The translations under genes were made by a program, and so were the position numbers. The notes beneath the pieces were generated by a model. That model was given only the letters and a program-made list of their open reading frames with translations. It did no database searches and had not been told where the DNA came from. A stretch of 64,000 nt of DNA. Source: Escherichia coli (GTDB taxonomy: Bacteria > Pseudomonadota > Gammaproteobacteria > Enterobacterales > Enterobacteriaceae). The stretch lies in assembly GCF_036507355.1 (NCBI RefSeq), contig NZ_AP027877.1. The stretch is one strand, 5' to 3'. Below, one piece after another: positions 11,072-14,354 of the stretch; the first letter of the stretch is position 1; each line of letters starts with the position of its first letter.

Positions 11072-13041
11072 CACAACTCGCCATTGGCAAACCCACTCCC
11101 CTCGGCGCGCATTACGACGGTCAGGGCGTCAACTTCACACTTTTCTCCGCTCATGCCGAGCGGGTAGAGCTGTGTGTCTTTGACGCCAATGGCCAGGAAC
11201 ATCGCTATGACTTGCCAGGGCACAGTGGCGACATTTGGCACGGTTATCTGCCGGATGCGCGCCCGGGTTTGCGTTATGGTTATCGCGTTCATGGCCCCTG
11301 GCAACCCGCCGAGGGGCATCGCTTTAACCCGGCGAAGTTGTTGATTGATCCTTGCGCGCGGCAAATTGACGGGGAATTTAAAGATAACCCGCTGCTGCAC
11401 GCCGGTCATAATGAACCTGACTATCGCGACAACGCCGCCATTGCGCCGAAATGCGTAGTGGTGGTTGATCACTATGACTGGGAAGATGATGCTCCGCCGC
11501 GCACGCCGTGGGGCAGCACCATCATTTATGAAGCCCATGTCAAAGGATTAACGTACCTGCACCCGGAGATCCCGGTCGAGATCCGTGGCACTTATAAAGC
11601 CCTCGGGCATCCAGTGATGATCAACTATTTGAAACAGTTGGGCATTACCGCGCTGGAACTGCTGCCGGTGGCGCAGTTTGCCAGTGAACCACGTCTGCAA
11701 CGCATGGGACTAAGTAACTACTGGGGTTACAACCCGGTGGCGATGTTTGCGCTGCATCCGGCGTATGCCTGCTCGCCAGAAACGGCGCTGGATGAGTTTC
11801 GCGATGCAATCAAAGCACTGCATAAAGCGGGTATCGAAGTCATTCTTGATATCGTGCTCAACCATAGTGCGGAACTGGACCTCGACGGCCCGTTATTCTC
11901 GCTGCGTGGGATCGACAACCGTAGCTATTATTGGATAAGAGAAGACGGCGATTATCACAACTGGACCGGTTGTGGCAACACGCTCAATTTGAGTCACCCG
12001 GCGGTGGTGGATTATGCCAGCGCCTGCCTGCGTTATTGGGTAGAAACCTGCCACGTCGATGGTTTCCGCTTTGATCTGGCGGCAGTCATGGGCCGTACGC
12101 CAGAGTTCCGTCAGGATGCGCCGTTGTTTACCGCTATCCAGAACTGCCCGGTGCTCTCGCAGGTGAAGTTAATTGCTGAACCGTGGGATATCGCTCCTGG
12201 TGGTTATCAGGTGGGAAATTTCCCGCCGCTGTTTGCCGAGTGGAACGATCATTTCCGCGATGCTGCCCGTCGTTTCTGGCTGCATTATGATTTGCCTCTG
12301 GGGGCGTTTGCCGGGCGTTTTGCTGCCTCCAGCGATGTTTTTAAACGTAATGGTCGTCTGCCGAGTGCCGCGATTAATCTCGTCACCGCGCATGACGGTT
12401 TTACGCTTCGCGACTGCGTTTGTTTCAACCATAAACACAATGAAGCAAACGGAGAAGAAAATCGCGACGGGACCAACAACAATTACAGTAACAATCATGG
12501 TAAAGAAGGGTTAGGCGGTTCTCTTGACCTGGTTGAACGGCGGCGCGACAGCATTCATGCCCTGTTAACAACGTTGTTGCTCTCCCAGGGTACGCCGATG
12601 TTACTGGCCGGTGACGAACATGGTCACAGCCAGCATGGCAATAACAATGCCTACTGTCAGGATAACCAATTAACCTGGTTGGACTGGTCGCAGGCAAGCA
12701 GTGGTTTAACCGCATTTACCGCCGCGTTAATCCATCTGCGCAAGCGTATTCCCGCTTTGGTGGAGAATCGCTGGTGGGAAGAAGGCGACGGCAATGTCCG
12801 TTGGCTAAATCGATATGCTCAACCCTTAAGCACGGATGAGTGGCAAAACGGGCCGAAACAGCTGCAAATTCTGCTCTCGGATCGCTTTTTGATCGCAATT
12901 AACGCCACGCTTGAGGTAACAGAGATTGTTTTACCTGCTGGGGAGTGGCACGCCATTCCCCCATTCGCTGGAGAGGATAACCCAGTGATTACGGCTGTCT
13001 GGCAGGGACCTGCACACGGATTGTGTGTGTTCCAGAGATGA
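11068..13041 (+). CDS. glgX: Glycogen debranching enzyme
   Basis: 657-aa ORF; start overlaps the glgB stop (ATGA). Confidence 0.95.
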
Positions 13042-13058
13042 TAAAAAAGGAGTTAGTC
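13008..13058 (+). promoter_or_regulatory. glgC leader with CsrA binding elements (hairpin cacacGGAttgtgtg with GGA in the loop, plus the SD aaggag)
   Basis: Hairpin at 13013-13027 and SD at 13047-13052 directly upstream of the glgC ATG; known CsrA target architecture. Confidence 0.6.
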
Positions 13059-14354
13059 ATGGTTAGTTTAGAGAAGAACGATCACTTAATGTTGGCGCGC
13101 CAGCTGCCATTGAAATCTGTTGCCCTGATACTGGCGGGAGGACGTGGTACCCGCCTGAAGGATTTAACCAATAAGCGAGCAAAACCGGCCGTACACTTCG
13201 GCGGTAAGTTCCGCATTATCGACTTTGCGCTGTCTAACTGCATCAACTCCGGGATCCGTCGTATGGGCGTGATCACCCAGTACCAGTCTCACACTCTGGT
13301 GCAGCACATTCAGCGCGGCTGGTCATTCTTCAATGAAGAAATGAACGAGTTTGTCGATCTGCTGCCAGCGCAGCAGAGAATGAAAGGGGAAAACTGGTAT
13401 CGCGGCACCGCAGATGCTGTCACCCAAAACCTCGACATTATCCGTCGTTATAAAGCGGAATACGTGGTGATCCTGGCGGGCGACCATATCTACAAGCAAG
13501 ACTACTCGCGTATGCTTATCGATCACGTCGAAAAAGGCGCACGTTGCACCGTTGCTTGTATGCCAGTACCGATTGAAGAAGCCTCCGCATTTGGCGTTAT
13601 GGCGGTTGATGAGAACGATAAAATTATCGAATTCGTTGAAAAACCTGCTAACCCACCGTCAATGCCGAACGATCCGAGCAAATCTCTGGCGAGTATGGGT
13701 ATCTACGTCTTTGACGCCGACTATCTGTATGAACTGCTGGAAGAAGACGATCGCGATGAGAACTCCAGCCATGACTTTGGCAAAGATTTGATTCCCAAGA
13801 TCACCGAAGCCGGTCTGGCCTATGCGCACCCGTTTCCGCTCTCTTGCGTACAATCCGACCCGGATGCCGAGCCGTACTGGCGCGATGTGGGTACGCTGGA
13901 AGCTTACTGGAAAGCGAACCTCGATCTGGCCTCTGTGGTGCCGGAGCTGGATATGTACGATCGCAATTGGCCAATTCGCACCTACAATGAATCATTACCG
14001 CCAGCGAAATTCGTGCAGGATCGCTCCGGTAGCCACGGGATGACCCTTAACTCACTGGTTTCCGGCGGTTGTGTGATCTCCGGTTCGGTGGTGGTGCAGT
14101 CCGTTCTGTTCTCGCGCGTTCGCGTGAATTCATTCTGCAACATTGATTCCGCCGTATTGTTACCGGAAGTATGGGTAGGTCGCTCGTGCCGTCTGCGCCG
14201 CTGCGTCATTGATCGTGCTTGTGTTATTCCGGAAGGCATGGTGATTGGTGAAAACGCAGAGGAAGATGCACGTCGTTTCTATCGTTCAGAAGAAGGCATC
14301 GTGCTGGTAACGCGCGAAATGCTACGGAAGTTAGGGCATAAACAGGAGCGATAA
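13059..14354 (+). CDS. glgC: Glucose-1-phosphate adenylyltransferase
   Basis: Matches Glg[21 protein letters not shown]...; 431 aa. Confidence 0.95.

Follow-up and report, generated by a model that had tools for sequence, protein, structure and literature searches.

The segment that joins glgX to glgC in the analysed stretch of Escherichia coli DNA (64,000 nt, hereafter the window) is almost certainly the CsrA operator that is already well characterised on the glgCAP mRNA of E. coli. The element has been known since 2002 and is the textbook glgC leader. Window positions 12826-13288 align to E. coli K-12 MG1655 with 0 mismatches, while 57 of 6501 positions differ between the two strains in 9887-16387. 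The whole K-12 leader is identical, with the same ACGGA in the hairpin loop, the same SD site and no difference at the element itself, so that the published work applies directly. Of 5425 complete E. coli genomes, 5380 carry a 70-nt stretch spanning the junction with 100% identity, and one variant, the lowest-ranked among the matches listed, is changed only in the A-run between the glgX stop and the SD.

Translational repression by CsrA, and the bridging of two sites by one dimer, have the glgC leader as their founding example, and the recognition of this leader here therefore only confirms a correct annotation. The analysis makes small additions, namely the selection on synonymous sites of the GGA and one stem pair, the missing loop GGA in Erwiniaceae, and the question that the overlap with glgX raises on the full-length transcript.

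Anatomy of the junction and its match to the published operator

The features of the locus, all on the plus strand, are as follows.

11068-13041, plus strand: glgX coding sequence (glycogen debranching enzyme), from the open reading frame list and from RefSeq, which annotates the identical sequence in K-12 and other E. coli
12925-13058, plus strand: glgCAP leader, 134 nt as used in the literature; its +1 is inferred from primers
12965-12988, plus strand: second, upstream hairpin, a candidate additional CsrA site; stem 12965-71/12982-88, loop GGA 12975-77
13005-13033, plus strand: full predicted hairpin; outer stem 13005-09/13029-33, 2-nt bulge, inner stem 13012-17/13023-28
13016-13020, plus strand: ACGGA, core of the high-affinity CsrA site (text and supplementary primers of PMC6028588); its GGA is the glgX Gly codon 13018-20
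13034-13038, plus strand: AGAGA just 5' of the SD, overlapping the last two glgX codons; probably a weak CsrA site of the non-consensus type; coordinates inferred
13039-13041, plus strand: glgX stop TGA, 5 nt 5' of the SD and 17 nt 5' of the glgC ATG
13047-13052, plus strand: glgC SD AAGGAG, with GGA at 13049-51, 7 nt before the ATG; in the literature the CsrA site of lower affinity, which blocks the ribosome when occupied
13059-14354, plus strand: glgC (ADP-glucose pyrophosphorylase), the regulated gene, from the open reading frame list and RefSeq; start ATG at 13059

The last approximately 45 codons of glgX also form the glgCAP leader. The initial annotation had described a CACAC-GGATT-GTGTG hairpin presenting GGA together with a second GGA in the SD, and both are in place: CACAC lies at 13013-17, the pentaloop GGAUU at 13018-22 and GUGUG at 13023-27, and the second GGA occupies 13049-51 within AAGGAG. 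The interval it had singled out, 13008-13060, does contain this hairpin, the glgX stop, the SD and the glgC ATG. Its placement of the hairpin immediately after the glgX stop has to be corrected, because the hairpin ends 12 nt before the stop and only the SD site lies beyond it. The overlap with the last glgX codons holds, the hairpin being made of the codons for Ala-His-Gly-Leu-Cys-Val. An in-frame TAA directly follows the TGA at 13039-41. The open reading frame starting at GTG 13023 is an in-frame 5' extension of glgC and was set aside, the RefSeq start being the ATG behind the SD.

The 5' end of the leader was placed with the primers of PMC2896534, whose +46 to +179 fragment corresponds to 12970-13103 and puts +1 at 12925. 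A promoter scan found no sigma-70 consensus upstream of this position, and the assignment of +1 therefore rests solely on the published primer coordinates.

Comparison with the published CsrA footprints, which had been named as the means of checking the site, locates it in the loop rather than elsewhere. The primers CAGGGACCTGCACACnnATTGTGTGTGTTCC, listed as 'mutated glgC-CsrA binding site' in the supplement of PMC6028588, put the footprinted non-SD ACGGA at 13016-20; this link to the footprint runs through a review and another laboratory's primers. Point mutations in the middle bases of ACGGA change the CsrA repression of a glgC-gfp fusion (PMC6028588). In Salmonella, CLIP-seq reads fall on the hairpin of the glgC leader that carries the GGA, and CsrB derepresses (PMC5207318). 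According to PMC7652899 (citing Baker 2002 and Mercante 2009) and PMC2896534, one CsrA dimer bridges the high-affinity hairpin-loop site and the SD site and excludes the 30S subunit. A paper on Yersinia pestis contained nothing usable on binding to the glgC leader, and a full-text literature search with the hairpin sequence itself (ACGGAUUGUG / ACGGATTGTG) returned nothing relevant.

Fold, chance expectation and conservation of the loop hairpin

The 30-mer 13005-13034 folds with a minimum free energy of -13.6 kcal/mol into an inner stem of 6 bp and an outer stem GGGAC/GUUCC around the loop GGAUU, and the fold of a 171-nt segment reproduces the shape of the 13005-13033 hairpin. The (CA)n/(UG)n repeats allow the inner stem, considered by itself, to slip by 2 nt into a second register of almost equal energy (-7.9 vs -7.2 kcal/mol); the loop then becomes GAUUG and G13018 enters a G·U pair. 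Across three transcript contexts, G13019 and A13020 have a predicted unpaired probability of 1.00 and G13018 one of 0.53-0.62, and the SD GGA at 13049-51 is likewise predicted to be single-stranded (0.88-0.98). The leader has the two elements of a dual-site CsrA target: a short hairpin upstream of the SD presents one GGA in its loop, and the SD of the regulated gene overlaps another. G13018 and G13049 are 31 nt apart, within the inter-site range of 10-63 nt (optimum above 18 nt) reported for bridging by one dimer (PMC7652899).

A stable stem of -13.6 kcal/mol at a gene junction could also, independently of CsrA, terminate or attenuate transcription or affect RNA stability between glgX and glgC. 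This reading is highly improbable: no U-run follows the stem (UUCCAGAGAUGAUAAAAAAGG follows instead), no Rfam family matches at the hairpin position, and glgBXCAP is read through as one transcriptional unit (PMC10819704; Montero 2011, from its title). An intrinsic terminator, that is, a G+C-rich hairpin with a U-run, was rejected, as the terminator scan of 12600-13100 found no site there. The Rfam scan of the whole window placed no family at 12900-13100, its only matches being RyhB (1400-1464) and ES036 (22862-22904).

As a bare motif, the GGA-loop hairpin is not significant beyond chance. The window holds 48 hairpins of 5 bp with GGA in a loop of 4-8 nt, against 38±6 in shuffled sequences, a 53-nt segment folds no better than its shuffles (z = -0.3), and ACANGGAT occurs 3 times where 6.6 are expected, without enrichment. 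Sequence statistics alone cannot establish a CsrA site, and the site is judged to be more than chance because of its conservation and the published experiments.

The near-chance frequency of the motif would suit a hairpin that is a mere by-product of the C-terminal GlgX sequence (Ala-His-Gly-x-Cys-Val) with no function at the RNA level. The protein does dictate part of the stem, since codons for Ala-His and Cys-Val complement each other by nature; non-synonymous codon positions determine three of the five core pairs, only two inner pairs are free to vary, and a similar stem lacking the loop GGA persists in Serratia and Yersinia. Against this stands the codon usage in the loop: the Gly codon is the rare GGA in 34 of 40 Enterobacteriaceae species, compared with a GGA use of 11.6% in the same genes (naive binomial 3e-26, not corrected for phylogeny). 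The Ala3:Cys3 pair (15-27), at synonymous sites, changes in a compensatory manner, with G-C in 20, G·U in 5, A-U in 4 and unpaired bases in 2 sequences, counts uncorrected for phylogeny. The covariation score of 0.196, also phylogeny-uncorrected, exceeds that of shuffles (0.156±0.009) and of slid registers, which reach no more than 0.113. The published ACGGA mutations that alter repression (PMC6028588) contradict it, and the Salmonella CLIP-seq reads that map to the hairpin (PMC5207318) speak against it too, leaving a mere by-product exceedingly improbable.

Conservation beyond the protein requirement and compensatory pair changes, the marks of a selected RNA element, are both present here. 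Across Enterobacteriaceae, selection at synonymous glgX sites visibly maintains the GGA and one stem pair. Conservation of the inner stem includes compensatory change. The outer stem GGGAC/GUUCC is confined to Escherichia and Citrobacter and was rejected as a defining part of the element, its pair 10-30 being paired in 7 of 31 distinct sequences. Among the 34 Enterobacteriaceae loci with the loop GGA, 29 have it 39-42 nt ahead of the ATG; in the other five, whose spacer is enlarged, the distance is 61-114 nt. The leader of Pseudocitrobacter carries a new hairpin in its spacer. The loop GGA is absent from all 14 Erwiniaceae loci (14/14), a family whose CsrA is reported not to repress glycogen (PMC5109040).

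CsrA action on the leader and possible coupling to glgX translation

In the proposed mechanism, transcripts starting inside glgX, about 134 nt before glgC, would carry the 3' end of glgX as an untranslated leader whose hairpin displays ACGGA. One RNA-binding face of a CsrA dimer would take this high-affinity site, and the other face of the tethered dimer would reach the SD GGA 31 nt downstream. Occupation of the SD would keep the 30S subunit off and leave glgC untranslated, and the untranslated message would decay faster. Titration of CsrA by the CsrB and CsrC RNAs would free the SD and raise glycogen synthesis. The anatomy, the K-12 identity, the predicted accessibility of both GGAs and the selection on synonymous sites come from this analysis; CsrA binding, bridging, ribosome exclusion and mRNA destabilisation are taken from the literature.

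The initial annotation had spoken of the classic two-site repression architecture. The hairpin and SD arrangement agrees with the literature, and the count of two falls short of the four CsrA sites that a review assigns to the glgC leader (PMC7652899). A weaker non-consensus footprint just 5' of the glgC SD is mentioned in PMC6028588, and AGAGA is given as a secondary site in Table 2 of PMC4066749, among whose references is Baker 2002; the AGAGA at 13034-13038 probably represents this site. The upstream hairpin at 12965-12988 also folds and is conserved in 40 Enterobacteriaceae, with 88.9% of the cells paired and one C-G to U-A double change, and it is possibly an additional CsrA site. Candidates for the remaining two of the four sites are 13004-08, 13034-38 and 12975-77.

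On full-length glgBXCAP transcripts the hairpin site is translated, a case that the leader model does not cover. On this mRNA, ribosomes finishing glgX might melt the hairpin, sweep off CsrA and end 5 nt before the SD, so that translation of glgC would be coupled to that of glgX and partly escape CsrA. This reading is an add-on, compatible with the CsrA operator, and we hold it only tentatively, as somewhat unlikely. It is favoured by the position of all CsrA sites except the SD within glgX codons, with 5 nt separating the stop from the SD and 17 nt separating it from the ATG, and by the short gap between stop and ATG (approximately 10-17 nt) or the overlap of the genes in most Enterobacterales loci, as is usual for coupled genes. 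Transcripts of both kinds, glgBXCAP and glgCAP, have been described (PMC10819704; Montero 2011, from its title), and iraD/idlP provides a precedent for CsrA acting through translational coupling (PMC6028588). On the other side, the literature search found no paper addressing glgX-glgC coupling, and the strong SD permits independent initiation. The finding that CsrA control needs no glgC promoter and depends on the region of the start codon (PMC7652899) is neutral on coupling.

Because glgX codons contain every mapped or suspected site except the SD, and 5 nt separate the end of glgX from the SD, repression specific to a transcript isoform is conceivable. CsrA would then repress strongly on glgCAP and more weakly on glgBXCAP, where ribosomes would strip it and may re-initiate. 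We consider such isoform specificity doubtful; if it were true, translation of glgX would become an input to the control of glycogen synthesis.

Relation to other CsrA targets

The CsrA operator of glgC shares its plan with those of cstA and pgaA of E. coli and of cel of ColE7, which likewise combine an upstream hairpin-loop GGA with an SD GGA and act by ribosome exclusion, although the number of sites differs, with two in cel, up to four in cstA and six in pgaA (PMC7652899, PMC2896534). The glgC sites lie within the coding sequence of glgX, the gene upstream, and they are therefore also constrained as codons.

SELEX yielded the consensus RUACARGGAUGU, carried in a short hairpin, for high-affinity CsrA ligands; its ACA and GGA do not vary and its GU hardly does (Dubey et al. 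2005, cited from PMC7652899). The glgC hairpin resembles this consensus, since ACA-C-GGA-U-U-GU at 13014-13024 has the ACA, GGA and GU elements, and in both RNAs the GGA lies in the loop with the flanking AC and GU paired. It differs in having C for R before the GGA and one extra U after GGAU. Its loop has 5 nt, whereas 6 is the commonest size in the SELEX ligands, and its stem has 6 bp (11 with the outer stem) compared with the at most 4 bp typical of those ligands.

The iraD gene, controlled via the upstream open reading frame idlP (PMC6028588), is like glgC in combining CsrA sites with an upstream frame that ends beside the regulated start codon. In iraD, CsrA represses the upstream open reading frame and coupling transmits the repression, whereas in glgC CsrA acts directly on the SD.

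Location and predicted fold of the glgC leader hairpin

The CsrA-target hairpin of the glgC leader lies in the E. coli glycogen operon, and the relevant features of the window, with genes from the ORF list, are as follows.

Features of the glycogen operon and glgC leader
8885-11071, +, glgB
11068-13041, +, glgX, stop TGA 13039-41
12965-12988, +, second hairpin in glgX, stem UCGCUGG/CCAGUGA, loop AGAGGAUAAC, codons Ala-Gly-Glu-Asp-Asn-Pro-Val
13013-17 / 13018-22 / 13023-27, +, hairpin core CACAC / GGATT / GTGTG
13034-38, +, AGAGA, last two glgX codons
13047-52, +, glgC Shine-Dalgarno (SD) AAGGAG, 7 nt ahead of the ATG
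13059-14354, +, glgC, ATG at 13059
14354-15787, +, glgA
15806-18253, +, glgP

The initial annotation located CACAC, GGATT and GTGTG correctly, and its reasoning, which has the hairpin overlapping the final codons of glgX, agrees with GCA CAC GGA TTG TGT GTG, read as glgX Ala-His-Gly-Leu-Cys-Val. Its title wrongly put the hairpin after the glgX stop, TGA 13039-41, as the stem already ends 12 nt upstream of it; except for this placement the finding is correct, and the glgC leader CsrA hairpin is already known. A mechanical ORF list opens glgC at the in-frame GTG 13023 (ORF 13023-14354, +) within the hairpin 3' arm, 12 codons 5' of the annotated ATG 13059, which is the RefSeq start; no SD precedes GTG 13023.

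RNA folding returned the hairpin as part of a larger predicted structure than the initial annotation had described, in which a 2-nt bulge separates a 6-bp inner stem (13012-17 with 13023-28) from an outer stem, GGGAC/GUUCC (13005-09 paired to 13029-33), giving the 30-mer a fold energy of -13.6 kcal/mol. The arms of the stem consist of CA and UG repeats, so the isolated inner stem can form almost equally well when slipped by two bases, with GAUUG as the loop, and the 53-nt fold returns this register. Partition functions in three transcript contexts gave unpaired probabilities of 0.53-0.62 for G13018, 1.00 for G13019 and A13020, and 0.88-0.98 for the SD GGA. The possibility that the hairpin is a terminator is rejected, as the stem lacks a following U-run and a terminator scan was negative. 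In an Rfam scan no family matched at the hairpin site; the only gathering-threshold matches in the window are the sRNAs RyhB (1400-1464, +, 83.1 bits) and ES036 (22862-22904, +, 43.6 bits).

Conservation of the loop GGA and comparison with chance

The window strain is not K-12, as 57 single-base differences from MG1655 occur across the 6501 positions 9887-16387. None falls within 12826-13288, so the published K-12 glgC leader results apply base for base. Over 501 bases around the element, all but one of 5426 complete E. coli genomes match at glgX and glgC with no less than 99% identity, and the 70-nt glgX-glgC junction is unchanged in 5380 of 5425; the one junction variant inspected, the lowest-ranked of those listed, has an A-run between stop and SD shorter by one A. 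Over 12800-13300, the best matches listed among the 5425 complete genomes are 99.6% rather than 100% identical.

A scan limited to a single genome for each species yielded 80 glgC loci across Enterobacterales, 40 of which are Enterobacteriaceae with the GlgX end block W-x-G-P-A-H-G-[VL]-C-V-F. Thirty-four of the 40 use GGA as the loop glycine codon, against a GGA share of 11.6% among glycine codons of the same glgX and glgC sequences (naive binomial probability 3e-26, a figure inflated by shared ancestry), while the adjacent codons, for Pro, Ala, Val, Cys and Phe, show free variation at the third base; the contrast with flanking synonymous sites is plain. The stem pair between the Ala and Cys third bases takes the form G-C (20 distinct sequences), G·U (5) or A-U (4) and is not formed in 2, with a covariation score of 0.196 vs 0.156±0.009 in shuffles and at most 0.113 in slid registers. 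The outer stem showed no conservation beyond Escherichia and Citrobacter. The reading of the hairpin as a pure by-product of coding is rejected: the bias towards GGA, the compensatory pairing and the mutants in the literature contradict it.

None of the 14 Erwiniaceae-type loci (L040-L051, L053, L073; Pantoea, Mixta, Winslowiella and similar) has GGA at the corresponding codon, which is GGC, GGT, GAC, GCT or GCC about 40 nt before glgC, with the stem partly retained along with the C-terminus of GlgX. As a correlation in a locus set without Erwinia, this absence is consistent with a published finding that glycogen accumulation in Erwinia amylovora is not repressed by CsrA (PMC5109040). In some species, e.g. 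L011 (Pseudocitrobacter faecalis), L018 and L025, the spacer from glgX stop to glgC is 54-81 nt, so that 71-104 nt separate the SD GGA from the hairpin in glgX. The L011 spacer (L011:1441-1500) holds a new hairpin of its own, UCCGC-GGAGG-GCGGA, with its loop GGA 28 nt ahead of that in the SD, and in L018 and L025 the spacer itself is a long stem-loop.

As a motif, the GGA hairpin does not exceed chance, and the case rests on experiments and conservation. The 53-mer folds no better than its shuffles (z = -0.3), and, counting both strands, the window has 48 hairpins that combine at least 5 Watson-Crick pairs with a GGA-containing loop of 4-8 nt, vs 38±6 in dinucleotide shuffles; at this frequency, any one segment of 54 nt ahead of an SD has a chance of roughly 2% of containing such a hairpin. 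ACANGGAT occurs 3 times in the window vs 6.6 expected, the only other two matches being at 41566-41573 (-) and 53998-54005 (+) (ACAAGGAT, ACATGGAT).

Published CsrA sites and the repression mechanism

A CsrA review counting four sites in the glgC leader describes a downstream site overlapping the SD and another in a hairpin whose single-stranded loop lies immediately 5' of it, where high-affinity binding tethers a CsrA dimer that bridges to the SD and blocks translation, with a bridging range of 10-63 nt and an optimum above 18 nt (PMC7652899); the two sites here are 31 nt apart. The account in PMC2896534 agrees, and its '+46 to +179' glgC fragment primers map to 12970-13103, which sets +1 at 12925 and the leader at 134 nt. 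The closest link between literature and window coordinates is PMC6028588, whose supplement primers CAGGGACCTGCACACnnATTGTGTGTGTTCC correspond to 13004-13034 and whose mutated bases are 13017-13019, the middle three of ACGGA, its footprinted non-SD site. This pentamer occurs once in the leader, at 13016-20, so the alignment that the initial annotation had named as its refutation test leaves the claim standing.

Further sites may be placed from the sequence. AGAGA, a 'secondary' CsrA site type credited to glgC work (PMC4066749, Table 2), probably corresponds to the weak footprint of non-consensus type that PMC6028588 mentions directly before the SD. The second hairpin, whose loop GGA (12975-77) has an unpaired probability of 0.88-0.99, is paired in 88.9% of cells across the 40 Enterobacteriaceae; it shows a double change GCU..CCA to GCC..CCG, and where Ala or Val replaces Glu the codon at that position still ends in G, so that GGA is retained. 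The hairpin is possibly one of the 'four', and the rest of the reported sites may be AGGGA 13004-08 and/or this loop GGA.

The analysis shows both GGAs to be accessible by prediction, correctly spaced and under selection. According to the literature, a single CsrA dimer binds the hairpin loop with high affinity and bridges to the SD, keeping the 30S subunit away; the untranslated message is destabilised, and CsrB and CsrC relieve repression by titrating CsrA. Two transcript forms, glgBXCAP and glgCAP, have been reported. On the long one the hairpin and AGAGA are read as glgX codons and the terminating ribosome halts 5 nt from the SD. Displacement of CsrA with glgX-coupled glgC initiation is physically plausible, and the short or negative stop-to-start gaps of most relatives fit it. 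A literature search found no paper testing this coupling, which we regard as a rather unlikely addition to CsrA bridging and not its replacement. The loop site resembles the SELEX consensus RUACARGGAUGU, whose invariant or nearly invariant ACA, GGA and GU it carries, and the glgC leader is the founding example of its class.
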